A stretch of 64,000 bases of DNA from a bacterium (GTDB lineage Bacteria > Hinthialibacterota > Hinthialibacteria > Hinthialibacterales > Hinthialibacteraceae): the NCBI GenBank assembly GCA_041946805.1, contig JBHGBC010000001.1, forward strand, positions 96,001-160,000, written 5' to 3'. A program made the position numbers and the translations under genes. Positions 10,626-64,000 of the stretch are shown here, piece by piece. The notes under the pieces are model-generated. The model did not search any database. It saw only the letters and a list, made by a program, of their open reading frames with translations, and had not been told where the DNA came from. Every line of letters begins with the position of its first letter. Within the stretch, counting starts at the first letter, position 1.

Positions 10626-13600
10626 ATGAAAAAGAACTCTCCTCGTGTTTGGATCCTGGGTTTCTGCCTGACCGGAATCCTGGCTGGCATGGCGTGGCTC
10701 ACCGCCTCCTTCGCTCCCCCCACCCCGGCCCGGATCCTCTTCCAGATCTCCGCCGCGGAAAAAGCCCGGCTGCTTGCCGCGGCGAAACCGCCCCGTCCCG
10801 CGCCAGCGAACCAATTGCCTTCCAAATTTACAACCCCTCCGCAAAAGACACGTTCGGCTCAAGCCCCCGATCCGGCAACCGCCAAAGTATCCCTGGCCGG
10901 ACTCACGCCCAACCTTCCCCGGCCGCAAACCGTCCCGGCCATGCCGCCCGGCAATGCTCCGAACGCCGCTCCCCGGAAATTGCGGGGCCTGCCGCGCGGC
11001 AGCGGGCGAACGGTCCCCGATCCCTACCAGCAGCAAGCCATCGGCCGGCTGCTGGATCAATTGGGCCCGGAAGCGGATCTGCAAATGGACAATCTGAGCC
11101 GCACGCTGCGCTGCCTGCGCGGCGATCTCTCACGGGTGGTGGCCAATTCGGAAACCTACCGTCAGGCCCGTTCGCGGGGGGACTTCGGGGCGATGGCCCT
11201 GGCCCTGGCCGGCGAGCTGAACGTGGTGATGAACATCCGCGATCCCCGGGATGAATTTTCCACTGAAAAGGTGTCGCGCGACGAACTCGGCATGACCCAC
11301 GTTCTTTTGCAGCAGAAGTACAAAGACCTGCCCGTGTGGGGGGCGCAGGTGGGTGTTCATTTCAATCAAATGGACAATCCGATTCAAATTTCCGGCGTCT
11401 ACACGTCCACGCCGGTGTGGATGCCGGAACCGGCCCGCCGGATCGGTCCCCGGACCGCCATTCAAAAAGCCCAGGAAGAGTTACAGACTACCGGTCCCGG
11501 CCTGGTCCAACCCACGGCGGAACCGATGATCTACTGGGATCTCGACCGGGCGCCGGAAATGACGTACCGGGTTGATCTCACACCTTCCCTGGCCGCGCAT
11601 TGGCAGGTATTCGTCTCCATGGAATCGGGCCGGATCGTCCACAAACTCCAGGCCATCTGCTCCCAGGCCGCGACCGGCCAGTCGCCCGATCTCAACAACC
11701 AGCCCCGGACCGTGAACTGCTGGAACGATAACGGTGTCTATTACGCGATCGACACGTCGCGGCCGATTTACAATTCCCAGTCTCAGCCGCCGGTTTTCTC
11801 GAAAATACAGGGCGCTCTCATGGTTCTCGACGCACAGAACCAGGATGTAAGCACCTTGAATCAGATTCCCATCGCCCGGTCCTCGGACGTCAACCGATGG
11901 GATCCCACGGTGGTCAGCGTCTTGAGCAATTTTGCCACGGTGGAGGAATATTACCGCCAAACCTTCAATCGCAACTCGATCGACGGCAAGGGGATGAGCA
12001 TCGTGGGGATCGTCCATGCCCGATTCAAGGACGCCAATGGGAACCCGAACAGCGATAACGCGTTTTGGAGTTCCAGCCTCCAGATGATGATGTTCGGCGA
12101 CGGAGAACAAGATTTCAAAAATTTGCCGGAGGGTTTGGATGTCACCGGACATGAACTGACGCACGGTGTGATCAACCACTCGGCCAACTTGATCTACGAG
12201 AACCAATCCGGGGCTTTGAACGAGCACCTGGCCGATCTGTTTGGAACCATGGTGGATCCCGGTGACTGGCTGATCGGAGAAGATATCGTGGCGCGGGGCG
12301 AGGCCTTGCGGGATATGCAGGATCCCCACAACCCCAATGTGCAGTCACCTCAGCCCAAAATCATGGCGGAATATCAAAACCTGGCCAACACGCCGCAAAC
12401 CGACAACGGCGGCGTGCACGTCAATTCGGGCATCCCGAACTACATGTCCTACTTGCTGACGGATGGGCCCAACGGCGTCGGCCGCGACAAGTCCCAGCGG
12501 ATCCTCTATCGGGCCATGACGGAGTACCTGACCCAACGCTCGCAGTTCCTCGATTACCGGCGGGCCGTCCTGTCCGCCGCCAAGGACCTCTACGGAGACA
12601 ACAGCCCGGAAACCCAGGCAGTAAACAGCGCCTTCGACGCCGTGGGCATCGTGGATGGCGAAACGCCGGGACCCACCGAACCCACTCCCGCCCCCACCGG
12701 GCAGGAACAAGTGGTGTTTCTGGCCGCCGATCCCAATATCTTCCAGCAGAACGGCGAAATCCATTACCTGCTGGTCTTGTATGATAACGGCCAGTTCACG
12801 CTGGTTTCCCCCCGCTACGTGTCCAACACGCGCCCGGCGATCTCGGGTGATGGTTCGTTTGGGCTGTACGTGGATGAAACGCACAACCTCTACCTCACGG
12901 ATGGAATCAACGAACAGCTGATCCGGGGCCAGAACGACATCCGCACCATCGCCCTGTCCAAGGACCTCCGGTACGTGGCCTACACCACCACGCCGGAAGA
13001 CAACCTGATCCATGTGCGGAACATGAAAACCGGCGAGGAACGGACCGCCGAACTGAACATCCCCCGCGTGGACGGCAATCTCGAAGCGCTGGATTACGCC
13101 GACGTGCTGACCTTCAATCACCGCGGCGATTATCTGATCTTCGACGCCGTCCATAACGGCGTGTGGGGCCTCTACTCGCTGCGCGTGGTGGACCTGGCCG
13201 CGCAGCAGGTGGCGGCCAACACGCCCGGGGAACAGCTGGGCAATCCCATCTTCGCGAACTACAACGATTCGCTCCTCCTGGCCGATTATTTCGTGAGCCA
13301 GGGCGGCCAAACCGCGGTGGCCATGATCGCCCTGGATTTCGACACCAATCAAATGGGAATCCTGCAGGGAGGCTTGAACATCGCCGCCCATCCCACCTTC
13401 CGCGGCGATGACCAGCGCGTCGTCTTCCGGAGCGGCAACCCGGACCAGAACGCCTACTTTCTCTACGAAGCGGAACTGCAGGAGGGCGAGGTGGCGCTGA
13501 AACCCAATTCCCAGAAACAAATCGCCACATTCAATCTCCCCTTCTCCTACCCCATCGGCTTCCAGGTGGGAACCTACACGCCCGTGGAAGGCAAGATCGC

Positions 13601-14606
13601 CGTGCCCGATTCGATCACCTTCGCGGATACGCCGGTCCTTTCGGAAAGCCGGCAAGACTGCTCGATCCAAAACACGGGCAACGGCGACATTACGATCATT
13701 GGCATCGACGTGGAGGGCGATGACGCGGATTCGTTCCGTCACACGGGCATCAACCAGGTCATCGGCGCGGGAAAGGCGTTGACCTTCGAAGTGGTTTTCG
13801 CGCCACAACGCCCCGGGCTGCTCTCCGCCCGGCTGCGGGTGAAATCCACCGATTTCAACAATCCCGACGTCACCGTCCCGCTATCGGGAACCGGCGCGGC
13901 GGCGGCCATCACGCCCACGCCCACCCAAGTCCCACCCACGGCCACACCCACCAGCACGCCCACGGCTTCACCCACACTCCAGCCGCAGGCCACTCCCACG
14001 AAATCCCAGGAACCGGGGCCGACTCCGACACCCCAATCCGGGGGCGGCATCCTGGCCGTCTATGAATTCGATCAGGACACGCTCGAAGCGGACGGCTGGT
14101 TCGCGATTCCCGGGGGATTCAATACCGCCGATCCCGGGACCATCCAGCCGGCCCCGCTGATTTTCGGCCTTATCCCCTCCTCGCGGGACAAGAAGGGATT
14201 GGCGGTCACGGTCAGTCCGGGCCAGGTGGCGTTCCTGGCGGCCTCCTCGGCCCTGCCCACGGGCGGCAAACCCGTCCTATTGCGGATGACCGCGCAGGCC
14301 GACGCGCCCAACGCCTCGCTCTTCGTGGTCGCTCTCAAGGGCGGTTTGGCGGGCAACCAGGGCGTGGACGGCTCCCTGGCGTATCACAATCCGGTCAGCG
14401 CCGCGCAATACATGGAACGGGAACGAGTCTTCGTTTTGCTCTACGAACCGGATTCGGGCGACACCATCACGCCCATCATCCAGGTGGCGGGAACCGGACC
14501 GGGCGGCCCGGCGACGGTGTATATCGACAAGCTGGAAGTGTTGTCCCTCGATCCTGGGCAATCGTATCCGGGAGCATTGTTCCGTTCCGCGCCGGGAGCG
14601 GATTAA
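10626..14606 (+). CDS. Secreted modular thermolysin-family (M4) metalloprotease with propeptide, beta-propeller-like region, Ig-like domain, Pro/Thr linker and C-terminal domain
   Basis: FTP-like propeptide (DELGMTHVLLQQKYKDLPVWG). M4 motifs NAFW, HELTH, ALNEHLAD and DNGGVHVNSG. TolB-like repeats (PAISGDG, HPTFRGD), Ig-like IQNTGNGDITI...FAP, and a PTATPT linker. Confidence 0.88.
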   Translation: MKKNSPRVWILGFCLTGILAGMAWLTASFAPPTPARILFQISAAEKARLLAAAKPPRPAPANQLPSKFTTPPQKTRSAQAPDPATAKVSLAGLTPNLPRPQTVPAMPPGNAPNAAPRKLRGLPRGSGRTVPDPYQQQAIGRLLDQLGPEADLQMDNLSRTLRCLRGDLSRVVANSETYRQARSRGDFGAMALALAGELNVVMNIRDPRDEFSTEKVSRDELGMTHVLLQQKYKDLPVWGAQVGVHFNQMDNPIQISGVYTSTPVWMPEPARRIGPRTAIQKAQEELQTTGPGLVQPTAEPMIYWDLDRAPEMTYRVDLTPSLAAHWQVFVSMESGRIVHKLQAICSQAATGQSPDLNNQPRTVNCWNDNGVYYAIDTSRPIYNSQSQPPVFSKIQGALMVLDAQNQDVSTLNQIPIARSSDVNRWDPTVVSVLSNFATVEEYYRQTFNRNSIDGKGMSIVGIVHARFKDANGNPNSDNAFWSSSLQMMMFGDGEQDFKNLPEGLDVTGHELTHGVINHSANLIYENQSGALNEHLADLFGTMVDPGDWLIGEDIVARGEALRDMQDPHNPNVQSPQPKIMAEYQNLANTPQTDNGGVHVNSGIPNYMSYLLTDGPNGVGRDKSQRILYRAMTEYLTQRSQFLDYRRAVLSAAKDLYGDNSPETQAVNSAFDAVGIVDGETPGPTEPTPAPTGQEQVVFLAADPNIFQQNGEIHYLLVLYDNGQFTLVSPRYVSNTRPAISGDGSFGLYVDETHNLYLTDGINEQLIRGQNDIRTIALSKDLRYVAYTTTPEDNLIHVRNMKTGEERTAELNIPRVDGNLEALDYADVLTFNHRGDYLIFDAVHNGVWGLYSLRVVDLAAQQVAANTPGEQLGNPIFANYNDSLLLADYFVSQGGQTAVAMIALDFDTNQMGILQGGLNIAAHPTFRGDDQRVVFRSGNPDQNAYFLYEAELQEGEVALKPNSQKQIATFNLPFSYPIGFQVGTYTPVEGKIAVPDSITFADTPVLSESRQDCSIQNTGNGDITIIGIDVEGDDADSFRHTGINQVIGAGKALTFEVVFAPQRPGLLSARLRVKSTDFNNPDVTVPLSGTGAAAAITPTPTQVPPTATPTSTPTASPTLQPQATPTKSQEPGPTPTPQSGGGILAVYEFDQDTLEADGWFAIPGGFNTADPGTIQPAPLIFGLIPSSRDKKGLAVTVSPGQVAFLAASSALPTGGKPVLLRMTAQADAPNASLFVVALKGGLAGNQGVDGSLAYHNPVSAAQYMERERVFVLLYEPDSGDTITPIIQVAGTGPGGPATVYIDKLEVLSLDPGQSYPGALFRSAPGAD
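13909..14037 (+). repeat. Pro/Thr-rich low-complexity linker (TPTPT...) inside the M4 protease
   Basis: ITPTPTQVPPTATPTSTPTASPTLQPQATPTKSQEPGPTPTPQ. Confidence 0.8.
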
Positions 14607-14701: not shown

Positions 14702-17700
14702 TCAATCCCGCAGATGCTTCATCTCGGTGCGCAGTTTCCAGAGTTTGTAAATGGCCGGGTAGATGAGCAGTTCCAGGATGAACGAAGTCGCCAGGCCGCC
14801 GATCATGGGCGCGGCGATCCGTTTCATCACGTCCGCCCCGGCCGAGGTGGACCACATGATCGGCAAGAGGCCCATGAAGGCCGAACAAACGGTCATGATC
14901 TTGGGCCGGGCGCGCTTGACCGCCCCGTGAATGATGGCTTCGTCCAGCTCGGCCCGCGAACGCAACAAGCCCCGGCGCTGGGCGTCATCGTAGGAGAGAT
15001 CGAGGAACAGGAGCATGAAGACCCCGGTTTCGGCGTCCAGCCCCAGGAGGGCGATCATCCCCACCCAGGCGGCGATGGAGACGTTGTAATCGAGAAAATG
15101 GAACAGCCAGATCGCGCCGATGGCCGAGAACGGCACGGCGAGCATCACCACGATGGCCTTGAACGCCGACTTGGTGTTGGCGTAGAGCAGCACGAAAATC
15201 AGGGCCAGGGTGATGGGCACGATCAGTTTCAAATGCTCGCGCACGCGCAGCATGTTTTCGTATTGCCCGCTCCACTGCAGCACGTAGCCGGTAGGCAGGG
15301 AGAGGTTGTCGCGCACCCGCTGCTTCGCCTCTTCCACGTAGCCGCCGATATCCCGCCCGGTGATATCGACATACACATACCCGGCCAGGAAGCCGTTTTC
15401 GTTGCGGAGCATCGAAGGCCCCTGCACCAGCTCGATGTCCGCCAGCTGCGCCAGGGGGATCTGCGCGCCCGTCCGCGTGGGGACCAGCACGCGCCGCAGG
15501 CGGGTGATGTCGTCGCGCAACTCGCGGGGATAGCGCAGGTTCACGGGATAGCGCTCGCGGCCTTCGATGGTGGTGGTGATGTTCTCGCCCCCGATGGCGC
15601 TGACGATGATCATCTGCAGTTCCTCGATGGTCAGCCCGTAGCGGGCCAACTGGTCGCGGCGGGGCACGAAATCGACGAAATACCCGCCCGCCACCCGCTC
15701 GGCGTACACGCTGCGCGTGCCGGGGATCTCCCGCAGCAAGGTTTCCAGCTCCGAGCCGATGCGCTCGATCTCCTTCAAGTTGCCGCCGAAGATCTTGATG
15801 CCGATGGGTGTGCGCACGCCGGTGGTCAGCATGTCGATGCGCCCCTTGATGGGCATCGTCCAGGCGTTGGTGGATCCGGGGATGCGTAGCGCCTGGTCCA
15901 TCTCGCCGATGAGTTCCTCCCACGAGATCCGGTCGGGCCAGATGGGCCGTAAAAACGGCTTGAGCCACTCGGGGGCGCGGTGGGTGTGCCACTGTTCCTT
16001 GGGGCGCCATTGGTCCTCGGGCTTGAGGATCACCGTGGTCTCCATCATCGAGAAGGGGGCGGGATCGGTGGAGGTGTCGGCGCGGCCCGCCTTGCCGAAG
16101 ACGCGCTCCACCTCAGGGAACGCGCGCAGGATGCGGTCCTGGGTTTGCATCAGTTCCTGCGCTTGGGTTACGGAGATACCAGGCAGGGTGGTGGGCATGT
16201 AGAGGATGGTGCCCTCGTTGAGGGGCGGCATGAATTCGGATCCCAGTTCAAAATACCACGGCAGGCTGGCGGCCACGAGCAGCAACGCCGCGAGAATCGT
16301 CAGGCGGGGAAAACGGAGCACCAGGCGGCAGGCCGGTTCATAGAAAAAATGAATCACGCGGCTGATGGGATGGCGCTCTTCGGGGTAATACGTCCCCACC
16401 GCCGCCTTGGTGAACAGCCAGGCCAGCCAGCGGGGCCGGAAGGTGAAGGGATCCATGCGGGTGAAGAGCATGCGCAGGGCGGGATCGAGCGTCACCGCCA
16501 GCCCCGCGGCGATGGCCATGGCCAGGTTCTTGGAGATGGCCAGGGGCATGAAGAGGCGGCCCTCCTGCTCGACCAGGGCGAAGATGGGCAAAAAGGCCAC
16601 GGCGATGACCAGCAGCGAGAAGAACACCGAGGGCCCCACTTCCTTCAACGCTTCCAGGCGGACTTCGTGAAAGTCGCCTTTCCGTCCTTCGGCCTGCCAG
16701 TGATACAACTTGTTGTAGGCGTTCTCGACCTCCACGATCGCGCCGTCCACCAGCACGCCGATGGAGATGGCGATGCCCGCCAGCGACATGATGTTCACCG
16801 TCACGCCCAGGTAATACAGCGGGATGAACGACAGCAGCACCGCCACCGGGATGGTGACGATGGGCACGATGGCGGAGGGGATATGCCACAGGAAAATCAA
16901 GATGACGAGGGAGACGATGATCATCTCCAGCGTCAACTCGTGCTTGAGGGTGTCGATGGCGCGCTGGATCAGATCGGCGCGGTCGTAGGTGGTGACGATC
17001 TCCACGCCCGCGGGCAGTGACGTCTCCAGTTCGTGCAATTTCTGCTTGACCCTTCCGATCACGTTCAGGGCGTTCTCGCCGTGGCGCATGACCACGATCC
17101 CGCCCACGTGATCGCCCAGCCCGTCCAGGTCGGAGATGCCCCGGCGGATTTCCGGCCCCAGCTCAACGCGGGCGATGTCCCGCAACAGCACCGGCACGCC
17201 GCCCGGCGTGGCCTTCACCACGATCTGCTCGAAATCCTCGATGGAGCGGGCGTAGCCCCGGCCCCGCACCATGTATTCCTTGCCGCTGAACTCCAGCAGC
17301 CGCCCCCCCACCTCGTTGTTGGAGCGGCGGATGGCCTCGACCACCTCATCCAGGGGCAATTGGTAGCTGACCAGCCGGTTGGGATCCACGGTGATCTGGT
17401 ATTGCTTGATGAATCCTCCGATGGCGGCCACCTCGGCCACCCCCGGCACGGACTGCAGGGCGTAGCGGAGGGTCCAATCCTGGTACGAGCGCAATTGGTC
17501 CAGCGAATGGGTTCCCGAATGATCCACCAAGGCATACTGGAAGATCCAGCCCACGCCGGTGGCGTCCGGGCCGATTTCGGTCTGCACGCCCTCGGGCAGG
17601 CGGGGCGTGATCTTCGAAAGATATTCCAGCACGCGCGACCGCGCCCAGTACATGTCGGTCCCGTCCTGGAAGATGACGTAGACATACGAGAAGCCGAAAT

Positions 17701-17956
17701 CGGAGAAGCCGCGGATGGCCTTGACGTTCGGCGCGCCCAGCAACGCGGTGATGATGGGGTAGGTCACCTGGTCCTCGATGATGTCCGGCGAGCGGTCCCA
17801 GCGGGAATAGATGATGACCTGGGTATCGGACAGGTCGGGTAGCGCGTCGAGGCGGATCTCTTCCAGCAGATACACCGCCAGCACCGACAGGGCGATCCCC
17901 CCCAGCAGCACCAGGTACTTGTTATGGGCCGAATATTCGATGATGGATTTGATCAT
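14702..17956 (-). CDS. cusA: CusA/SilA-type heavy-metal efflux RND permease
   Basis: Motifs LDALPDLSDTQVI, GPDATGVGW, NIMSLAGIAISIGVLVDGAIV, GSEFMPPLNEG, TDPAPFSMMET and RARPKIMT; 1084 aa. Confidence 0.93.
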   Translation of the reverse strand: MIKSIIEYSAHNKYLVLLGGIALSVLAVYLLEEIRLDALPDLSDTQVIIYSRWDRSPDIIEDQVTYPIITALLGAPNVKAIRGFSDFGFSYVYVIFQDGTDMYWARSRVLEYLSKITPRLPEGVQTEIGPDATGVGWIFQYALVDHSGTHSLDQLRSYQDWTLRYALQSVPGVAEVAAIGGFIKQYQITVDPNRLVSYQLPLDEVVEAIRRSNNEVGGRLLEFSGKEYMVRGRGYARSIEDFEQIVVKATPGGVPVLLRDIARVELGPEIRRGISDLDGLGDHVGGIVVMRHGENALNVIGRVKQKLHELETSLPAGVEIVTTYDRADLIQRAIDTLKHELTLEMIIVSLVILIFLWHIPSAIVPIVTIPVAVLLSFIPLYYLGVTVNIMSLAGIAISIGVLVDGAIVEVENAYNKLYHWQAEGRKGDFHEVRLEALKEVGPSVFFSLLVIAVAFLPIFALVEQEGRLFMPLAISKNLAMAIAAGLAVTLDPALRMLFTRMDPFTFRPRWLAWLFTKAAVGTYYPEERHPISRVIHFFYEPACRLVLRFPRLTILAALLLVAASLPWYFELGSEFMPPLNEGTILYMPTTLPGISVTQAQELMQTQDRILRAFPEVERVFGKAGRADTSTDPAPFSMMETTVILKPEDQWRPKEQWHTHRAPEWLKPFLRPIWPDRISWEELIGEMDQALRIPGSTNAWTMPIKGRIDMLTTGVRTPIGIKIFGGNLKEIERIGSELETLLREIPGTRSVYAERVAGGYFVDFVPRRDQLARYGLTIEELQMIIVSAIGGENITTTIEGRERYPVNLRYPRELRDDITRLRRVLVPTRTGAQIPLAQLADIELVQGPSMLRNENGFLAGYVYVDITGRDIGGYVEEAKQRVRDNLSLPTGYVLQWSGQYENMLRVREHLKLIVPITLALIFVLLYANTKSAFKAIVVMLAVPFSAIGAIWLFHFLDYNVSIAAWVGMIALLGLDAETGVFMLLFLDLSYDDAQRRGLLRSRAELDEAIIHGAVKRARPKIMTVCSAFMGLLPIMWSTSAGADVMKRIAAPMIGGLATSFILELLIYPAIYKLWKLRTEMKHLRD

Positions 17957-18026
17957 GGGTTAATCCAATGCGATGAATTGCTGTATTACGCCATGGATGA
18001 CATGCGTTTCAGGCGCCTGGCTTCTA

Positions 18027-18054
18027 GTAGGGGCACGTTGCAACGTGCCCCTGC
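18027..18054. repeat. REP-like family D palindrome between cusB and cusA
   Basis: Perfect 24-bp palindrome AGGGGCACGTTG|CAACGTGCCCCT at 18029-18052, similar to 50868-50895 and 42121-42148. Confidence 0.8.
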
Positions 18055-18082
18055 TTACTTGACGGGATATTTTTTTATTCCC

Positions 18083-19783
18083 TCACATCCCACCACCCAT
18101 CCCCTGGATCGCGGCGCGCAGGCGGGATTCGGAATCGATCAGGAAATTCGCCTTGACCACCACGTTCTCACCGGGCTGGACACCGGACAGGATCTGCGCC
18201 TGGCCGCCGCCGCGGATGCCCACTTTCACGTCGCGCGGCTGCAACCGCCCATCATCCTGCCGCACGAAAACCACCTGGCGCAGGCCGGTGTCCATCACCG
18301 CCGAATCGGGGACCACGACCGACTCGGGCGTGTCGATCTGCAATGTGACATCCACGTACATGGACGGTTTGAGCGCCAGGGTGGGATTGGCGAAATCCAG
18401 GCGGACCTTCAAGGTCCGGCTTTCGGGATTCAGGTAGGGATAGATATAGGCCACGCGGCCTTTCAGCTCGACAGTGGGATCGTAAGGAAGCGTCAGCGTG
18501 GCCTCCTGTCCCACGCGGACCGCCCGGGCCTCGTACTCGTAGAAATCGGCCTCGATCCAGACGTGCGAAAGATCGGTGATGACGAACAGCTCCATGCCCG
18601 GCTCGACCTGGTGGCCCTCGTAGATGTCCTTGGAAGTGACGAAGCCGGAGACGGGGGCGTTGAGGACCACCGCGCGCTGGGGCTTGCCGGCGCGGGTGAG
18701 TTTCCCGATGAAATCCTGGGGCACGTCGAACAGTTCCAACCGCCGCCGCGAGGCCTCCAATAGATCTTCTCCCCCTTTCCGGACTTCGGTGATTCGCGAG
18801 TTCTGAAACCGCTTGTGGATTTCCAACGCGCGCAAAAATTCCTCCTGCGTGGCCAGCAACTCGGGCGAATAGATGGACAGGATCGGTTCTCCCTTCTTCA
18901 CGGCCTGCCCGGTGAAGTTGGCGTAGAGTTTCTCGACGAAGCCGGCGATCTTGGTGTGCACGTGCCGGACGCGGGTTTCATCGGCGAGCACCGCGCCCAC
19001 CGTGCGGGTGGTGAAACGCAGCTTTTCCGGCGTGGCGGCGACGATCTGCACGCCCGCCAGCCGGAGGGATTCCTCCGTCAGTTGAAGGGGGGCCAGGTCT
19101 TCAGGCGCGCCAGTGGCCGTCGCGGTCTGGGACGGTTCGTCCGCGTACACGGGGATGAAATCCATGCCCATGCTGTCCTGGGCCGGGACGGGGGACGTGA
19201 CCGCGGGATCCATCGGGCTGCGGTAATAAAGGATCTTGCGTTCCGAGGCGCGCGCCGCCGCGCCCGTGGATGGCGGCCCGGCGGCAGGTGTGGGTGTGGG
19301 ATGCTCAGGGCCTGAAGCGGGTAGGGCCGGTTCGGAGGCGGATGGAGTGGGGGTGGCCTTGACCTCGACCAGCTTCATGCCGCATTTGGGGCACCGGGCG
19401 TTGGGATCATGCAAGAGAACCTCGGGGTGCATGGGGCACGTGTAGAGCGGCTCGGGAAAGGGCTGGTTGGCCTGTTCAATCGGAACCAGCTTCATCCCGC
19501 ACAAGGAGCAGCGCTCGCCGGGCTTGTCCGAGGTGATTTCGGGATGCATCGGGCAGACGTACTTGGGCGCCACGGTGGGCGCGGTCTTGGTTTCGATGGG
19601 CACCAGGCGCATGCCGCAGATGGGGCAATCGCCGGGCCGGTCGGAAATGTAGGTCGGGTGCATGGGGCAATGATATTGCTTCCCCGCTTCTTCCTTGGAT
19701 CCGCAGCCGGTCAATCCGGCCAGCATCGATCCGATGAGCAGGAGAAATATAAGGAATGGAATTCTCTTTCTGCCTGTATTCAT
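18083..19783 (-). CDS. cusB: CusB-type RND periplasmic adaptor lipoprotein with three N-terminal YxCPMHP metal-binding repeats
   Basis: Start re-called at MNTGRK (ATGA overlap with the upstream TolC gene). Lipobox LTGC; YHCPMHP, YVCPMHP and YTCPMHP repeats; YYRSPMDP...DSMGMD; adaptor motifs IYSPEL, APVSG and NFLIDSES. Confidence 0.9.
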   Translation of the reverse strand: MNTGRKRIPFLIFLLLIGSMLAGLTGCGSKEEAGKQYHCPMHPTYISDRPGDCPICGMRLVPIETKTAPTVAPKYVCPMHPEITSDKPGERCSLCGMKLVPIEQANQPFPEPLYTCPMHPEVLLHDPNARCPKCGMKLVEVKATPTPSASEPALPASGPEHPTPTPAAGPPSTGAAARASERKILYYRSPMDPAVTSPVPAQDSMGMDFIPVYADEPSQTATATGAPEDLAPLQLTEESLRLAGVQIVAATPEKLRFTTRTVGAVLADETRVRHVHTKIAGFVEKLYANFTGQAVKKGEPILSIYSPELLATQEEFLRALEIHKRFQNSRITEVRKGGEDLLEASRRRLELFDVPQDFIGKLTRAGKPQRAVVLNAPVSGFVTSKDIYEGHQVEPGMELFVITDLSHVWIEADFYEYEARAVRVGQEATLTLPYDPTVELKGRVAYIYPYLNPESRTLKVRLDFANPTLALKPSMYVDVTLQIDTPESVVVPDSAVMDTGLRQVVFVRQDDGRLQPRDVKVGIRGGGQAQILSGVQPGENVVVKANFLIDSESRLRAAIQGMGGGM

Positions 19784-21150
19784 GGGCGCGTCTCTCCATT
19801 CAGGGAGCGAAGTTCCCCATCCCGGGCGGCGGGCGAGGGACGGATCAGGTATTCGATTTCCGCCCAGGTGATGAAGCGGTCGGCCTCGCGCCGCCCCAGT
19901 TCCACCCGGGCTTCGAGCCAGAGGTTGAAGTCCTCGATGACGGTCGAGAAATCGCCGCGGCCCACCAGGTACGACGACCGGGCGGCGTCCAGCGCCGCGC
20001 TGGTCTGCGGAATGATGCCCTCGGTGTAGAGTTGGATCTGTCGGCCCGCCTTGGCCCATTCGGCGGCCAAGCGTTCGATCTCCGACCGTGTGGCGATTTC
20101 CGCTTCCCGCAGTTCGTGCCGGGCCATGTCTCGTTCCTGTTCGGCGGCGCGCAGCAGAGGTTTTTGCTTGTAATTTTTCCACAACGGCAACTCGATTCCC
20201 ACTTGCAGGGTCACGATATGGTCGAAGCCGCCGCGTGAAAACACACCCGCGCCCACGGTGAAGCCGGGATTTAAATCGGCGCGCGCGGCGTCCACTTTGC
20301 GTTCGGCCACCGTGACTTCCTTTTCCTTGATCCGGATTTCGGCGGCATTCGCCAAGGCTTGGGATTCCCAAGCCGGTTCGGGCAATGCGCTTTCGGGCAG
20401 GGTGTCCACTTTTCCGAGAGTCACGGGATCGCCGCGGCCCAACAGGCGGTTCAGGGCGGCGTTCAGGACGCGGCGCTCGGATTCCAGGTCCGTCTGCCGT
20501 TCGCCCAGCCGCGAGAGCTGCAGCTGCGCCTTGATCAACGCTTCCTGCTCGGTCTCCCCCGCGCTGTAGCGCATGGAAACCGTGGCCGTGAGCATGTCCA
20601 GCAGTTCCCGGCCCAGTTCCAGGGCTTGCCGTTCCTGATCGATCGCGTACAGGCGGGCATATACCATCCGGACCTGCGACACGAGTCGGCGGCGGACCTC
20701 CTCGAGTTCCGCCGCGCGCACCGGCGCCACCGCGCGGGCCGCTTCCCGGCGCGCCTTCAATTTGCCGGGAAAGAGCAGCCCCTGCGAGATCCGCACCCCA
20801 GCCATCGACATTTCCTCATCCCCCACGGTGAGGCTGGGAAAATTCACGTCGGTCAGTTCGAACTCCACCATCGGGTCGGGCAGCGCGCCTTCGGGGGCGG
20901 TCATCTCCTCCGCGGCGTGTATGCGGCTGGTCATGACCGACACCGAGGGATTGTTGGCCAGAGCCTCCCGGACCAGGTCCTCCACCGGCGGCGCCTGGTC
21001 ATCCAGAAAAGGGGTAGCGGACACGGCCGGACCCGCGGGAACCGGCGCGAGCGGGAGTTCGGCCTCTGGGGCCCCGGCGGCCCCGGCGCGCCAAGACATC
21101 AGGACCAGGCACCCCAGCCCCACACACGCGGCGTATAGGAATCGGCGCAC
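19780..21150 (-). CDS. TolC/CusC-family outer-membrane efflux protein
   Basis: Signal peptide; motifs LVREALANNPS, ALPDPM, ISQGLLFPGKL and IELPLW; coiled-coil repeats; first gene of the RND triad. Confidence 0.88.
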   Translation of the reverse strand: MRRFLYAACVGLGCLVLMSWRAGAAGAPEAELPLAPVPAGPAVSATPFLDDQAPPVEDLVREALANNPSVSVMTSRIHAAEEMTAPEGALPDPMVEFELTDVNFPSLTVGDEEMSMAGVRISQGLLFPGKLKARREAARAVAPVRAAELEEVRRRLVSQVRMVYARLYAIDQERQALELGRELLDMLTATVSMRYSAGETEQEALIKAQLQLSRLGERQTDLESERRVLNAALNRLLGRGDPVTLGKVDTLPESALPEPAWESQALANAAEIRIKEKEVTVAERKVDAARADLNPGFTVGAGVFSRGGFDHIVTLQVGIELPLWKNYKQKPLLRAAEQERDMARHELREAEIATRSEIERLAAEWAKAGRQIQLYTEGIIPQTSAALDAARSSYLVGRGDFSTVIEDFNLWLEARVELGRREADRFITWAEIEYLIRPSPAARDGELRSLNGETRP

Positions 21151-24566: not shown

Positions 24567-24664
24567 CTATTGCCTAAACAACCGGTCACAAGATACACCC
24601 TGATTTGAAGGGCGCGAAGATTCAGATGACGGCCACATATCGAAACCGATGGAGGTGCAAGACG

Positions 24665-25453
24665 ATGAAGTATCAAGGATTCATGAACATACTATGGAGC
24701 TTTTTGGGGCTTGCGGGCGCATCCCTAGCTTTGATTTCAATGCCATTGCATGCCCAAACGGAACACAATCACGCCCAACATTCTTCCCAGGAGAGCCCAA
24801 CTGCATCGAAAACCATTCAGGAAATCCCGGGGGATCCCTACACCTTGTCCACCTGCCCGGTCTCCGGACAGACGTTGGGCTCGATGGGAGAATCCGTGAT
24901 CTATACTTACCAGGGAAGGGAAATTCGATTTTGCTGCGCGGCGTGTATCTCCAAGTTCGAAGCGGATCCCGGAAAGTTCATCCAGAAAATCGATCAATTA
25001 ATGATCCAGGATCAATTGCGAGTATATCCACTCGACACCTGCGTGGTATCGGGCGAGAAACTGGGCGGTTCCATGGGCAAGCCGGTCGATTTCATATACA
25101 AGAACCGCCTGGTCCGGTTTTGTTGTCCCTCCTGCGTCGACTCATTCAAAAAGGATCTGGACCGATTTTTGAAGAACCTGGATCAAGCGGTAATCGAGAA
25201 GCAAAGATCCTCATACCCGCTGACCACCTGCCCGGTTTCGGGCGAGAAATTGGGCGGATCCATGGGCAAGCCCGTGGACAAGTTGGTGGCGAACCGCTTG
25301 GTCCGGCTTTGCTGCCCGGCCTGTGAAACGGCCTTGGCCAAGAACCCGCAAAAAATCCTGGGAAAAGTGTACGGGACATCGGCTCCAAAACCTAACGTTC
25401 ACGGATCCCATAAACAAAAAGTGGGCCATAATCCTGCAGGCTACAGACACTAA
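24665..25453 (+). CDS. Exported protein with three YHS/TRASH-like metal-binding repeats
   Basis: GGAGGTG RBS and signal peptide. Three repeats of Y(P/T)LxTC(P/V)VSG..LG.SMG.....Y..R.(I/V)R(F/L)CC..C, with His-rich termini. Confidence 0.8.
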   Translation: MKYQGFMNILWSFLGLAGASLALISMPLHAQTEHNHAQHSSQESPTASKTIQEIPGDPYTLSTCPVSGQTLGSMGESVIYTYQGREIRFCCAACISKFEADPGKFIQKIDQLMIQDQLRVYPLDTCVVSGEKLGGSMGKPVDFIYKNRLVRFCCPSCVDSFKKDLDRFLKNLDQAVIEKQRSSYPLTTCPVSGEKLGGSMGKPVDKLVANRLVRLCCPACETALAKNPQKILGKVYGTSAPKPNVHGSHKQKVGHNPAGYRH

Positions 25454-56114: not shown

Positions 56115-56510
56115 ATGCAAGCGATTCTCAATCAGATCCACCCGTTTGGGGTGGCCTTGTGGATGATCGGAGGCTTGGCGGGAGGCCTGTTTATCCTCCA
56201 ACTCGCCCTTCCCCGGGGCCGGGCGGGGATCCGGGGCACGCCCGAATCGCGGGTGTATCTCTGGACGATCAACTTCCTCCGGCTGCATCTGGCGGCGGGC
56301 ATCGTGCTCGGGGTGTATGAATATATCCAGTGGTTCACTAAACTGGGCATGACGGACCATTTTTACGACTGGTGGCCCATGTTGCTGATTTACCTGGCGT
56401 GCCTGGCCGTGGATTTCGCCCTGCTCCGGCTGTTGTTCACGTCCAAATACCGGCGGTATCTCCAATCCGCGGACCGCCTGGGGAAAACGGGAGGCCAAGA
56501 ATCATGGTGA
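56115..56510 (+). CDS. Small integral membrane protein (3 TM)
   Basis: GGAGG RBS, three hydrophobic segments; overlaps the start of the tubulin-like gene. Confidence 0.75.
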   Translation: MQAILNQIHPFGVALWMIGGLAGGLFILQLALPRGRAGIRGTPESRVYLWTINFLRLHLAAGIVLGVYEYIQWFTKLGMTDHFYDWWPMLLIYLACLAVDFALLRLLFTSKYRRYLQSADRLGKTGGQESW

Positions 56511-59500
56511 CGCCCTCGGTTTACATCGGCTTGGGCACTTCGGGGACGGAAATCATCCAGGGCGTCCGGCGTTTGTTGTACGATGAATACGGCGTGCCCG
56601 GCCTGCCCTGTATCCGTTTTCTCAGCCTGGAAACCCATACCAATCTCCCCTCCACGGACCAGGATGTCTACGTGCGCGACGAAAACCAGGCCTGGCAGCA
56701 ACTGCAGGTCATTTCCCTCGCCCTGACGCGCATCCAACTGCAACAATTGCGATCCCGGATCGATCCCTCCGGCCAGGAGTATCACCCCGGCTGGGCCGAG
56801 TGGCTCGATCCCCAGGTGCTCATGGGGACCGCCTTCACCACCGGTGCGCGGGGCTGGCGCATGGCCGGCCGCCTCTGCCTGTGGGCCAATTGGCGAAACG
56901 TGTACGAGGGATTGATCCAAACCATCCAAAGCGTCATCCAAGGCCGGGACGAAACGATCTCCTTGCTGGAGAGGCATTACGCCACGAAAGGCATCAACCG
57001 GCCCGACGGCGACCTGGTGGAACCGGCCCTCCGTGTTTACATCTGCGGATCGCTGTGCGGCGGCACGGGTTCCGGCATCTTCTGGGAGACCGGCTTCCTC
57101 GCGCACGAAGCGGTCGCCGACGCCGCCGTGGGGCACGATCCCGACATCCATGGCGTTTTCACCGTGGTGGACCGCAAAACCGCCAACAGCCTGCGCCAAT
57201 CCGATATCGTCTGCTCCATGAACTGCTGGGCGGCGCTGCTGGAATACGACTACTGGGCCAGCGGCCAAAACGCCTATCAGGTCCTGCATCCCCTGGATCC
57301 CAACAGCCGGTTCCCGGGCATCCCCAACGATTTCGGCCCCTACCAGGTCTTCAACATCATCTCCCCCTCCAACGACAGCGGCTACCGTTCCGTCAGCTGG
57401 AACGGACAGGACTACGACCTGACTCCGCTGCACGTCTCCATCTCCACCTCGCTCTACTTGGACCAGGTGCGTGAAGTGAAAGCCCGCAAGGACGGCGACC
57501 GCGCGCAATACGCCATCACCAACCAGATCAACAAAAAATCCCCCAACGGCCTCTACCGCCAGCGCATCCAGACCTATGGCTTGTCCGGATTCTACTATCC
57601 CAAGTTCATGATCGCCTCGGCGGCCGCCTGCCAACTGGGTAAGGAACTCGTGGAACACTGGTGCGGGGAGGGCAACCGGAACAACGCCATGCGCGCCGCC
57701 CACCGGGATTGGGAAGAGATCTACCTCCTCATCCGTTCCCAACTGCTGCGCGTCGGAAACCTGGATTTCATCGAACACATGCGCAATCACCTGCAGGACG
57801 CGTTCGACAGCATCGGACCGAAGAACCTGCAGGCCTTGATCAACTACCTGAAAACGCAGGTCCACGTCCCGGTGCTGCCCGGCGCCCCGCTCCTCCTCGA
57901 GGCCTTGCAGCCCAACGGCGCGCTCCACCGCCATTTCGACCAGGAAGCCAACAGCCTGATCACCCTCCTGGTGACGGAAATCACCAAAAAAGTGGAGCAC
58001 CATATCAACGCCATCCAATCCGGGGGAACCACCAGCCTGGACGAAGTCGTGCAATACCTGGAGGAATTGCCCCAGCGGATGCGGGAGACGATCAACGGCC
58101 TTCCCGGCCCCGCCGGCTTGCGGGCGTTCCATATTCCCTGGCCTTCCCTCCGGGGGATGGCCCTGCGGTTCGGCGAGATCAGCAAGGACTGGTGGCTGAA
58201 GGCCACGTTCTCGCGGAAGGCGATCCAGAAATACTACCTCGCCAAGGCCCTCGAGGAGGTGCAGGAAAAGGTCAAGGAGCAGATCAACCAACTGGCCGAC
58301 CGGGTGACACGGATGATTTGCGAAAAAGCGCTGCCCCGCGTCATCGGCGACTCCGGTCTGGGCGGGTTCCAATCCTCGACGCTGTACGACGACAACCGCG
58401 AGCGGTTGAACCGCCTCCGCAACCGGATCGCGCCCGCCCTGCAAAACCGCTGGCAGGACATCACCCGCGAGCGCACCTTCGGCAGCCTGCGCATGGTCAC
58501 CAGCCGCGATACCATCGCCCAGGACGCGGAACTCCTGGCCAACGCCGTGCGCGCCCGCCTGCGCCCCGCCGAAGTCTACCGCGAACTGCTCACGGACGGG
58601 ACGCAATCCGTGAGTTTCTATCATTTCCTTTGCCAGGAAGCCGGACAGATCGAACAAAAACTGATTCAGTACTACCAGCCGGAATGCTGGCGGGCGGCGC
58701 AATCGGTCAATATCCTCAATCAATTGGCCACGGACCGCTATTCCCTGCAAACCTTGCTGGAAACCGCCCGCGGTTCCCATCCCTGGCTGCAGTTCACCGG
58801 CGGCCAGGTCCCCGACAAGGGCTGCGACGAACCGGATATGATCATCGGGCCGCGGGGATCGGAAGCCCGGCTGAACCAAATCGTCAACCAAGTGCGGACC
58901 CAGGATGACAACCTGCCCGCATTTCAGCCGGTGGAGGGCATCCTCGACAACATGGTGGTGTTCTACCACGAGGCGGCCGCGCTCTCGCTCCAGGATTGGC
59001 AACTCGAATCCACGCTGGACAACCTCCTGCAGCACGGGGGACGGACGGAAACCGACGACCCCGTCATGACCCCGTTCAATAACCATTACACCCACAAGCT
59101 GGGTACTCTCCGCTATCATCCCAAGCTGCGGCGGATCATCGCGGATTTGAATTTCTGGATCGAGGCCGCCACCCTCTTCCGGGAACCGATGCTTACCCAG
59201 GATTTTCTCTACCTCGATCCCCAAAACGGGCATCTCACCTACGTCTATACCTCCAAGATGGGCCTGCGGGACACCGTGGACCTGACCGTGGAGGGCGAGA
59301 TCTCCGAATTCGCCCGGGCCGATGACGGCGAGGCGGCGCGCGGATTCATCGAACGCGTGCGGGAAGTGCTCAATGACCTGGGGCGGGACAACGTGGAAGA
59401 CCTGGGTAACGCCTTGTGGGAGGCCCAGGCCGATGACCGGAATCAACAACGGAAGATCAAGGAAACCACCGAACGGGTAATCCACCAATTATTTCCCGGG

Positions 59501-59563
59501 GAATCGCGGAGGCGGACGGAAAAAACGCCCCCGCCGGCCCTCCCCCCCCGCAACGAACCATGA
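56504..59563 (+). CDS. Tubulin/FtsZ-like GTPase (Tubulin_2/FtsZl1-type) with a long helical C-terminal extension
   Basis: GGAGG RBS before MVTPSVYIGLGTSG; GARGWRMAGR; tubulin signature GSLCGGTGSG (57047-57076); 1019 aa. Confidence 0.85.
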   Translation: MVTPSVYIGLGTSGTEIIQGVRRLLYDEYGVPGLPCIRFLSLETHTNLPSTDQDVYVRDENQAWQQLQVISLALTRIQLQQLRSRIDPSGQEYHPGWAEWLDPQVLMGTAFTTGARGWRMAGRLCLWANWRNVYEGLIQTIQSVIQGRDETISLLERHYATKGINRPDGDLVEPALRVYICGSLCGGTGSGIFWETGFLAHEAVADAAVGHDPDIHGVFTVVDRKTANSLRQSDIVCSMNCWAALLEYDYWASGQNAYQVLHPLDPNSRFPGIPNDFGPYQVFNIISPSNDSGYRSVSWNGQDYDLTPLHVSISTSLYLDQVREVKARKDGDRAQYAITNQINKKSPNGLYRQRIQTYGLSGFYYPKFMIASAAACQLGKELVEHWCGEGNRNNAMRAAHRDWEEIYLLIRSQLLRVGNLDFIEHMRNHLQDAFDSIGPKNLQALINYLKTQVHVPVLPGAPLLLEALQPNGALHRHFDQEANSLITLLVTEITKKVEHHINAIQSGGTTSLDEVVQYLEELPQRMRETINGLPGPAGLRAFHIPWPSLRGMALRFGEISKDWWLKATFSRKAIQKYYLAKALEEVQEKVKEQINQLADRVTRMICEKALPRVIGDSGLGGFQSSTLYDDNRERLNRLRNRIAPALQNRWQDITRERTFGSLRMVTSRDTIAQDAELLANAVRARLRPAEVYRELLTDGTQSVSFYHFLCQEAGQIEQKLIQYYQPECWRAAQSVNILNQLATDRYSLQTLLETARGSHPWLQFTGGQVPDKGCDEPDMIIGPRGSEARLNQIVNQVRTQDDNLPAFQPVEGILDNMVVFYHEAAALSLQDWQLESTLDNLLQHGGRTETDDPVMTPFNNHYTHKLGTLRYHPKLRRIIADLNFWIEAATLFREPMLTQDFLYLDPQNGHLTYVYTSKMGLRDTVDLTVEGEISEFARADDGEAARGFIERVREVLNDLGRDNVEDLGNALWEAQADDRNQQRKIKETTERVIHQLFPGESRRRTEKTPPPALPPRNEP

Positions 59564-63774: not shown

Positions 63775-64000
63775 TTGCGAGGCGATAATTCATACAGTTC
63801 GTTTTCCGGCGGTTCGCCATCTTATTCCAAACAGATGACCGACAAGCAATTTATTTTGGAGTACAGCGTCACTCCCAAGTCGTCCAAGTATCCCAACCTG
63901 TTATGGAAAGGATTTCAGGTCCTGACCGAGGAACGAGAAGACCATACGATCGAGTGCGCGCTTTCGGTGCCCCGGTTCATCAACAACCTCAAGGTCATCA
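63775..64000 (+). CDS. Next gene of the operon, 3' end outside the window (hypothetical)
   Basis: AAGGAGGGGG RBS, then TTG start (alternative ATG at 63835). Frame is open to the window end: ...MTDKQFILEYSVTPKSSKYPNLLWKGFQVL... Confidence 0.6.
   Translation, partial: MRGDNSYSSFSGGSPSYSKQMTDKQFILEYSVTPKSSKYPNLLWKGFQVLTEEREDHTIECALSVPRFINNLKVI

Follow-up and report, generated by a model that had tools for sequence, protein, structure and literature searches.

A tubulin-like protein with an FtsZl1 (Tubulin_2) profile in a ten-gene operon with Hsp70-like, GrpE-like and Zorya-type stator genes

The 64,000-nucleotide window analyzed here (positions 96,001 to 160,000 of contig JBHGBC010000001.1, assembly GCA_041946805.1, from a bacterium of the family Hinthialibacteraceae) carries the gene for a giant tubulin-like protein, which an earlier note, made from the DNA letters alone, had described as a GTP-dependent scaffold with a helical stalk. 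By its profile match this protein is a member of FtsZl1 (Pfam Tubulin_2), a family of the tubulin/FtsZ superfamily. Its gene is the fourth in a translationally coupled operon of ten plus-strand genes, whose other products include a zinc-ribbon Hsp70-like ATPase, a GrpE-like protein and a stator pair of the Zorya kind. We favor reading the operon as a machine that links the cell envelope to the cytoplasm, and we give this reading as a whole a probability of roughly one half.

Assignment to FtsZl1 follows from a score of 108.8 bits with Tubulin_2 (cut-off 27), by which Pfam models the sequences that Makarova and Koonin called 'FtsZ-like' (PMC9871819), and from a length of ~1000 residues, which is normal for the family. 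The earlier note had placed the protein in the tubulin/FtsZ superfamily and had proposed this Pfam search as the check; the search was run and bears the placement out (Table 1). The same domain, PF13809, is carried by all 11 homologs from a word search and was matched by 38 of 38 aligned N-terminal domains of relatives. Among 1.84 billion representatives, relatives numbered 807 at an expectation value (E) ≤1e-3, 227 at E ≤1e-10 and 79 at E ≤1e-30, the 807 being representative clusters at 50% identity. The protein aligns over its full length to relatives of about 950–1150 residues, and most of the best 150 of the 807 relatives listed are ~900–1200 residues long. The size that had been taken as unusual is thus ordinary for the family. 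NCBIfam and PADLOC gave no match for the protein, and neither the phage records searched nor viral contigs searched with one motif pattern yielded one. Longer fused forms (for example, tubulin-Hsp70) were not found in a search that we rate as weak evidence.

One relative of 2019 residues (P0150) contains two tandem tubulin-like (FtsZl1) modules. The N-terminal region in front of these modules resembles, by its motifs, a putative TIR domain and Ser/Thr kinase. If that assignment is true, the family would be linked to immune-type signaling domains.

The open reading frame is a real gene, as indicated by the Pfam match, the relatives and the ratio of nonsynonymous to synonymous substitution rates (dN/dS). 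It translates to 1019 residues plus a stop, exactly as first described, and its first 7 nucleotides (nt) are shared with the end of gene 3, the gene before it. Compared with an 86%-identical ortholog (locus L001), overall dN/dS was 0.109, with regional values of 0.081 for residues 1–390, 0.132 for residues 391–750 and 0.112 for residues 751–945. Since these values are about equal in all three regions, the C-terminal extension is as constrained as the GTPase-like domain. No membrane segment is predicted in the protein, and we read it as cytoplasmic. On the minus strand, an open frame of 1032 codons (56390–59488) runs against the gene; we take it to be a chance by-product of the high G+C content (62%).

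All the motifs quoted in the earlier note are present, and those of the N-terminal domain (Table 1) contain conserved positions of the family. In an alignment of 107 family members, W100, G114, R119, G122, G187 and E247 are invariant. G9, G11, G14, R123, G182, G186, G191, D195, G217, N240, P279, G359 and P366 are near-invariant, as are, distally, Y821 and E823. The glycines of the T1, T3-like and T4 segments are kept in 104–107 of the 107 sequences. The segment GARGWRMAGR may correspond to the tubulin T3 loop (GAGNNWAKG), which it resembles. Because it lies only 60 residues past T4, the N240/E247 pair probably occupies the position of helix H5 rather than that of the T7 loop. Large inserts separate T1 from T4, unlike in canonical members of the superfamily.

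The link to canonical tubulin and FtsZ is weaker in our own data than the assignment to Tubulin_2. The profile PF00091 was also matched by 14 of the 38 relatives, all below its 33-bit cut-off (best 23 bits, E 1.1e-4). These matches cover profile positions ~104–175 of 190, from T4 to H5, with one case at positions 3–89; beyond Tubulin_2 and PF00091, no family recurred in more than one of the 38 N-terminal domains. Sequence similarity to canonical tubulin and FtsZ appears to span only T1 to about helix H5. A forced, low-threshold hhalign run against FtsZ produced alignments that could not be trusted and were discarded. The published link between FtsZl1 and tubulin/FtsZ was an HHpred match with E 1.4e-5 (PMC2875224).

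The protein is, by its domain content, an accessory paralog and not the division FtsZ, because a canonical FtsZ is encoded elsewhere in the genome. This FtsZ lies on another contig (C112) in a 448-codon open frame (441 amino acids from the first ATG), matches FtsZ_C and carries the GGGTG[ST]G signature. The tubulin-like protein lacks an FtsZ_C or Tubulin_C domain and is the only Tubulin_2 match in its genome. Across the phylum, FtsZ_C is present in 25 of 26 sampled genomes, versus 4 of 41 related genomes for the tubulin-like gene. The view that this is not the division protein, put forward from its length and location, is upheld on these grounds.

The strongest single result that the modules of the operon belong together is their shared phyletic profile. 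Homologs of the tubulin-like protein, the Hsp70-like protein and the ZorA-like protein each occur in the same 4 of the 41 related genomes, our own included, and these queries found none of them in the other 37. All four positive genomes belong to one family, so the profile represents few independent events. In genome G008, one contig has genes 1–6 in syntenic order, and a second contig carries the GrpE-like gene together with the ZorA-like one, so that both halves are present in a genome without being linked. Locus L002 repeats the order of all ten genes, with a tubulin-like protein of 50% identity and a contig end inside the ZorA-like gene, and L001 repeats the first four.

We extended this comparison by searching the open reading frames of 78 related loci with iterated profiles of the ten proteins; 33 of these loci were well flanked, with 7 kb or more on each side. 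Hsp70-like neighbors were found in 31 of the 78 loci (18 of the 33 well-flanked ones), ZorA-like neighbors in 28 (21), ZorB-like neighbors in 24 (17), neighbors resembling the membrane protein of gene 2 in 18 (13) and GrpE-like neighbors in 17 (13). Hsp70-like and Zor-like genes are both present in 16 of the 33. Ten of the 33 have no Hsp70-like, ZorA-like or ZorB-like gene; these come mostly from Caldilineaceae and related Chloroflexota, with one labeled Synergistia and one Fervidibacter. Where tubulin-like and Hsp70-like genes occur together (31 loci), the latter lies directly downstream in 19 and upstream in 11. The tails of the ZorA-like proteins in related loci have a median length of 437 residues (range 239–574, n=26, some cut by contig ends). 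Operon neighbors recur, in differing gene orders, in records labeled Poribacteria, Verrucomicrobiota, Armatimonadota, Abditibacteriota, Myxococcota, Bacteroidota and Cyanobacteriota. A quick maximum-likelihood tree of 77 N-terminal domains, which left out 2 of the 78 loci with open reading frames of <350 residues, placed 38 rows with such neighbors inside one 52-row group; only 1 of the 25 remaining rows has them. Support for this group in the Shimodaira–Hasegawa-like approximate likelihood ratio test (SH-aLRT) was 92, below the 95 mark.

More distant tubulin-like relatives reside on megaplasmids of Deinococcus, Thermus and Nostoc. On a Deinococcus radiophilus plasmid, the tubulin-like gene is followed by an IS630 transposase, a hypothetical gene and then, by annotation, a 'methyl-accepting chemotaxis protein' and an 'OmpA family protein', which we take as a putative instance of the same stator pair.

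Two further loci deserve mention on their own account. On the Nostoc punctiforme plasmid pNPUN01, a conjugative megaplasmid (locus L113, 10985–15303), vWA and tubulin-like genes sit among genes for CHAT-domain proteins, caspase-family proteins and an S8 peptidase, a conflict-type neighborhood of a distant family member. An uncultured bacterium (L061, 10001–19097) has three tandem tubulin-like genes with an Hsp70-like gene upstream.

The ten genes are spaced by overlaps of 4–7 nt or gaps of 6–15 nt, with one gap of 221 nt. The operon begins past a divergent sugar ABC-transporter cluster, extends 5.3 kb beyond the end of the window and ends before a convergent TPR/FG-GAP gene (L081). Scans for promoters and terminators did not rise above shuffled controls (2 versus a mean of 2.7, and 14 versus 12.1).

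The Hsp70-like protein encoded directly downstream of the tubulin-like gene comprises a zinc ribbon, a ~350-residue beta-rich region, an Hsp70-type nucleotide-binding domain (about residues 390–900) and a short C-terminal beta region. It matches Pfam HSP70 with 24.6 bits (cut-off 20.6) and aligns with the DnaK of its own genome in BLASTP (E 1e-7) over the motifs GIDFGNTNT and FDFGGGTIDM. Counterparts of the Hsp70 catalytic Asp, Lys and Glu and of the DxGGGT motif are kept: in 11 aligned sequences D395 and K485 are invariant, and E574, D608, T613 and D615 are conserved at 90% or more. It is not a DnaK ortholog, because its NCBIfam DnaK scores fall far below the cut-offs. The product of the following gene was considered as a degenerate Hsp70, and this candidate was dropped because it has no similarity to the Hsp70-like protein.

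The last two genes encode the stator pair. The ZorA-like channel protein (P0166) reaches Pfam MotA_ExbB with 23.0 bits against a cut-off of 22.9 and has three membrane segments followed by a 375-residue tail; its single PDB match is 8vvi_F, a MotA/TolQ/ExbB-domain chain (E 6.5e-4). In its MotB/ZorB-like partner (P0167), the Asp at the edge of the membrane helix, at the proton-relay position, is invariant in 11 of 11 homologs.

Upstream of the tubulin-like gene, the protein of gene 2 (P0014) has an exported domain in which D47-x-S49-x-S51 is invariant in 16 of 16 homologs and D201 is kept in at least 90%. This domain resembles a metal-ion-dependent adhesion site (MIDAS) and is a possible vWA domain. 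None of the 16 members matches the Pfam VWA model and the PDB profile search was empty, so the designation 'vWA' stands at the level of the motif. The Cys-rich protein of gene 1 had no Pfam, NCBIfam or PADLOC match and only Atlas leads below 0.9; it has syntenic homologs in L001 (69%), L002 and G008 (39%), and homologs of the small membrane protein of gene 3 occupy the same position in these three places. Membrane segments were found in four of the ten operon proteins. Besides Tubulin_2, HSP70, MotA_ExbB, OmpA and a weak GrpE, no Pfam match was obtained in the operon, and none of the ten proteins has a genuine Walker A/P-loop, the one regular-expression match being a Lys/Ser-rich run in the Hsp70-like protein.

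Elsewhere in the same genome, nine PF00012 matches were noted (contigs C179, C252, C21 and C36), several of them in long atypical frames of 890, 830, 617 and 579 residues, and a second MotA-like match occurs in a 654-residue open frame (contig C60). These frames may be further non-canonical chaperone or stator modules.

Past its Pfam domain the tubulin-like protein extends for 636 residues, in keeping with the long extension first described; the idea of a plain, mostly helical stalk probably does not carry over to the whole of it. Residues 351–750 are rich in helix formers and poor in Pro and Gly in 7 of 8 50-residue bins, by composition only, and the stretch WWLKATFSRK lies at residues 563–572. 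The last ~270 residues, which hold conserved strand-like blocks (Table 1), probably form a globular domain for that reason; within the second block, T863 and H864 are invariant among the 10 closest homologs. An Atlas search with the extension returned only Tubulin_2 clusters, with scores of 0.81 or less. The published prediction for the family is a coiled coil plus a helical domain past the FtsZ-like part (PMC2875224).

Table 1. Genes of the operon and features of the tubulin-like gene and protein (window positions unless prefixed C1).
Feature	Protein	Position	Strand	Remarks
Gene 1, 516 aa, Cys-rich N-terminus	P0013	52795..54345	+	Stop overlaps start of gene 2 by 4 nt
Gene 2, 588 aa, membrane protein	P0014	54342..56108	+	Hydrophobic N-terminal segment, exported domain, second segment 410–428, cytoplasmic tail
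Gene 3, 131 aa, small membrane protein	P0015	56115..56510	+	Two hydrophobic segments
Gene 4, 1019 aa + stop, giant tubulin-like protein	P0001	56504..59563	+	Open reading frame and family evidence
Gene 5, 1050 aa, zinc-ribbon Hsp70-like ATPase	P0016	59560..62712	+	Start overlaps stop of gene 4 by 4 nt
Gene 6, 344 aa	P0017	62728..63762	+	No family match; syntenic homologs in L002, G008
Gene 7, 511 aa, GrpE-like C-terminus	P0164	From 63775, runs off window at 64000	+	Pfam GrpE E 0.002, below cut-off
Gene 8	P0165	C1:161532-162851	+	No family match; reading of L081 past the window
Gene 9, ZorA-like channel	P0166	C1:162845-164575	+	MotA_ExbB E 7.3e-5; PADLOC ZorA3 E 1.3e-14
Gene 10, MotB/ZorB-like wall anchor	P0167	C1:164572-165273	+	OmpA E 1.9e-12; PADLOC ZorB3 E 5.8e-19
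GGGAGG, Shine-Dalgarno-like, 9 nt 5' of the ATG of gene 4		56489..56494	+	Direct sequence reading
Tubulin_2 (PF13809) domain, residues 6–383	P0001	56519..57652	+	E 4.6e-31; profile positions 1–355 of 356
T1-like glycine loop IGLGTSG, residues 8–14	P0001	56525..56545	+	G9, G11, G14 each kept in 105/107 family members
GARGWRMAGR, residues 114–123, T3-like	P0001	56843..56872	+	G114, R119, G122 in 107/107; R123 in 106/107
T4 tubulin signature GSLCGGTGSG, residues 182–191	P0001	57047..57076	+	G187 in 107/107; G186 in 106/107
Segment SMNCWAALLEYDYW, residues 238–251	P0001	57215..57256	+	E247 in 107/107; N240 in 103/107
C-terminal conserved blocks VVFYHEAAALSL (818–829) and NNHYTHK (859–865)	P0001	58955..59098	+	Y821 in 99/107; E823 in 94/107

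Taken together, these parts suggest a working order for the envelope-to-cytoplasm machine that we favor. The stator and the exported MIDAS-like domain would sense or act on the cell envelope, and the ZorA-like tail would relay the envelope signal to the cytoplasm, a role with a precedent in Zorya, where the tail recruits cytoplasmic partners (PMC11946911). Through its N-terminal domain the tubulin-like protein would form GTP-dependent oligomers or polymers, its C-terminal region could dock partners, and the dedicated Hsp70/GrpE pair would load, remodel or dismantle the assembly. The scaffold with partner proteins that the earlier note had imagined fits the ten-gene operon; its alternative of membrane binding is less likely, no membrane segment being predicted in the protein. 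Judging from the patchy spread (4 of 41 genomes), the megaplasmid-borne distant relatives and the Nostoc plasmid copy among CHAT and caspase genes, we infer that the role is most likely an accessory, defense-like or envelope-stress response rather than a housekeeping cytoskeleton.

The locus is a compact operon that ties a tubulin homolog genetically to an Hsp70/GrpE set and a stator of the Zorya kind, and few branches of the tubulin/FtsZ superfamily are as large as its family, of which 807 clusters matched our query. A physical coupling of these parts would mean that ion-driven 5:2 motors have a new use, that a bacterial cytoskeletal protein has its own client-specific Hsp70 system, the first of its kind, and that a family orphaned for 15 years has a function. 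Otherwise the protein just adds another member to FtsZl1. A narrower form of the proposal, which we advance only tentatively, is that the operon is a further kind of Zorya-like system. In that case the proton-driven, wall-anchored ZorAB-type motor and the exported MIDAS-like protein would sense envelope damage (for example, by phage), and the long tail of the motor would trigger GTP-dependent assembly of the tubulin homolog, which Hsp70/GrpE would build or reset. A polymer of the tubulin family would then be the effector of immunity or of a stress response, coupled to a rotary sensor that is driven by ions.

Several results weigh against the envelope-to-cytoplasm reading. With regard to the tubulin-like protein, it had no PF00091 match of its own at E ≤0.5. 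Run against a profile built from 16 FtsZ sequences of low diversity (Template_Neff 2.5), hhalign paired only the T4 stretch (LRVYICGSLCGGTGSG with DLVFITAGLGGGTGTG, the FtsZ GGGTGTG falling on the T4 stretch), with a probability of 6.3%. PDB searches gave no relevant match, either with phmmer of the protein, where hits were at chance level, or with a profile of the 38 N-terminal domains. Across the 107 sequences, residues 250–400 contain no acidic residue conserved at 75% or more, and a canonical catalytic T7 loop is therefore not recognizable; the protein may bind GTP without hydrolyzing it in the manner of tubulin. With regard to the stator, the MotB/ZorB-like protein was nearer to flagellar MotB (4.4e-14) than to the Zorya-structure chain 8vvn_B (6.8e-6) in the PDB sequence search; this stator B chain, named 'MotB-related' by its depositors, was the sole Zorya-structure B chain matched. 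PADLOC matched the stator pair only and none of the other eight operon proteins, and we recognized no nuclease, pore or other effector in the operon. The surrounding window is ordinary chromosome with housekeeping genes, in which no integrase, transposase or defense gene was found. Finally, the neighbor counts are biased and non-independent, because the loci were drawn with subfamily motifs and at least 14 of them are from Poribacteria.

Some of the same observations suit a serious rival, although we consider it unlikely on balance: a membrane-remodeling or vesicle-forming machine, in which a polymer under the membrane would deform it together with membrane proteins and the wall-anchored stator, in a physiological role (for instance, in maintaining the envelope or forming compartments) and not in conflict with phage. 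This is the reading that Makarova and Koonin themselves drew from vWA, OmpA and membrane-protein neighbors (PMC2875224), and it accords with the membrane segments in four of the ten operon proteins, with a locus among housekeeping genes and with the lack of an effector-type domain in the operon proteins. However, the tubulin-like protein itself has no predicted membrane segment, and a system found in only 4 of 41 relatives better fits an optional module than a core envelope function. The long stator tail, moreover, has so far been tied to Zorya defense (PMC11946911).

Membership in the DO-GTPase/GAP1-N2 conflict systems of Kaur et al. is highly improbable. Those systems do combine GTPases with tubulin homologs and an HSP70 protein, and have an HSP70 plus GrpE theme (PMC7159879), but our ten proteins contain no Walker A motif and no match to a GTPase family. 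No FNIII-repeat protein was recognized either, and the Pfam matches stop at the five families named above. The published themes are non-overlapping and the tubulin theme is from Firmicutes/Actinobacteria, whereas here both occur together and in other phyla; the available text of PMC7159879 mentions neither MotA nor Zorya. We give no more credence to a second division or shape paralog of FtsZ, such as CetZ or FtsZ2, acting with the divisome. It would share the superfamily and intact T1 and T4 loops with our protein, but there is no FtsZ_C domain, the gene lies outside any division and cell wall (dcw) cluster, its occurrence in the genomes compared above is far sparser than that of FtsZ_C, and the FtsZ similarity is limited to the T4 region. 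Lastly, the dynamin analogy drawn in the earlier note, in which a helical stalk would bind and tubulate membranes alone, finds no support and is very unlikely: the large size of this GTPase-type protein, the many helix formers in its long extension and the adjoining membrane-protein genes could suggest it, but the nucleotide-binding domain is of the tubulin type and not that of a P-loop dynamin, no membrane segment is predicted, and the context favors partner proteins over direct membrane work.

Other parts of the window contain two features apart from the operon. The metallopeptidase encoded at 10626–14603 (plus strand) is of the thermolysin type (M4); it is 1326 residues long and has a propeptide motif and a C-terminal extension of ~650 residues. 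At 14702–20368 (minus strand) and 24605–25450 (plus strand) lie genes for a pump of the AcrB/CusA type and for a membrane-fusion protein of 761 residues that has three heavy-metal-binding repeats. Genes for a metal-binding TRASH/YHS protein and for a sigma-54 response regulator are nearby, and the group as a whole looks like a metal-efflux island.

Several known systems bear comparison with the operon. With FtsZ, TubZ, PhuZ and tubulin the protein shares a glycine-rich T1 loop, a GGTGSG-type T4 and, in 14 of 38 relatives, the sub-threshold PF00091 matches; unlike them, it has no FtsZ_C/Tubulin_C domain, no recognizable T7, large T1–T4 inserts and the 636-residue extension.

In the DO-GTPase/GAP1-N2 conflict systems (Kaur, Burroughs, Iyer and Aravind 2020, eLife 9:e52696), tubulin homologs and HSP70/GrpE are themselves effector themes. 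They are placed under paired TRAFAC GTPases and GAP1, the tubulins carry helical domains fused at the C-terminus, and the two themes do not overlap, the tubulin one being confined to Firmicutes/Actinobacteria (PMC7159879). The present operon resembles these systems in its tubulin homolog with a possibly helical C-terminal part, its HSP70 and GrpE, its zinc ribbons, its membrane-proximal components and its patchy accessory distribution. It differs in that a DO-GTPase, GAP1 or FNIII-repeat component was not found by Pfam or a Walker A scan, in that the tubulin and HSP70 themes co-occur, and in that a stator pair is present.

FtsZl1 (FtsZ-like 1) was described computationally by Makarova and Koonin (2010, Biol Direct 5:33; PMC2875224) as a family in which T1 and T4 are conserved, T6–H7 and beyond are not alignable, and a normal FtsZ is present alongside. 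Its operon partners there are vWA proteins with an intact MIDAS motif, divergent GTPases, kinases and OmpA-family proteins. According to Additional file 5 of that paper, FtsZl1 has MotA/TolQ/ExbB and OmpA genes as neighbors in two Deinococcus genomes, a DnaK-like neighbor of 1626 residues in Magnetospirillum and one annotated as GrpE in Chloroflexus. The available main text mentions none of MotA, Hsp70 and GrpE, and it takes OmpA as a beta-barrel membrane protein, not as a stator B subunit. A literature search found no experimental work on any FtsZl1 member or DO-GTPase system. Our protein agrees with this description in its N-terminal FtsZ-like domain with T1 and T4, its ~1000 residues, its long non-tubulin C-terminal part and its unrecognizable T6–H7/T7, and in its coexistence with a canonical FtsZ and its neighbors, an exported DxSxS-motif protein and an OmpA-family protein. 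Unlike the published FtsZl1 operons, the present one has no GTPase or protein kinase gene.

The ZorA5B2 motor of Zorya runs on protons, is anchored in the cell wall and requires its long tail for the recruitment of soluble effectors (PMC11946911, PMC11890865). In Escherichia coli ZorA this tail comprises residues 223–729 (Hu et al. 2024, PMC11946911; Mariano et al. 2025, PMC11890865), and Zorya types I–III are defined by ZorC/D, ZorE and ZorF/G (PMC11946911, PMC11890865). No paper joining stators or Zorya with tubulin-like proteins was found in our literature search. Unlike Zorya, the operon has no match to ZorC, D, E, F or G among its other eight proteins (PADLOC); it pairs the stator with a tubulin-like protein and an Hsp70/GrpE set and has no recognizable nuclease. 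Like Zorya, it has a MotA-type channel with three membrane segments and a long cytoplasmic tail, a MotB-type protein with a membrane-edge Asp and a peptidoglycan-binding domain, and soluble partners in the same operon. Set beside these systems, the tubulin-like protein itself appears to be an ordinary member of a known, experimentally untouched family, typical in its size and extension. The less ordinary part is an FtsZl1 operon that, without a GTPase or kinase, unites an Hsp70/GrpE set with a Zorya-type stator.

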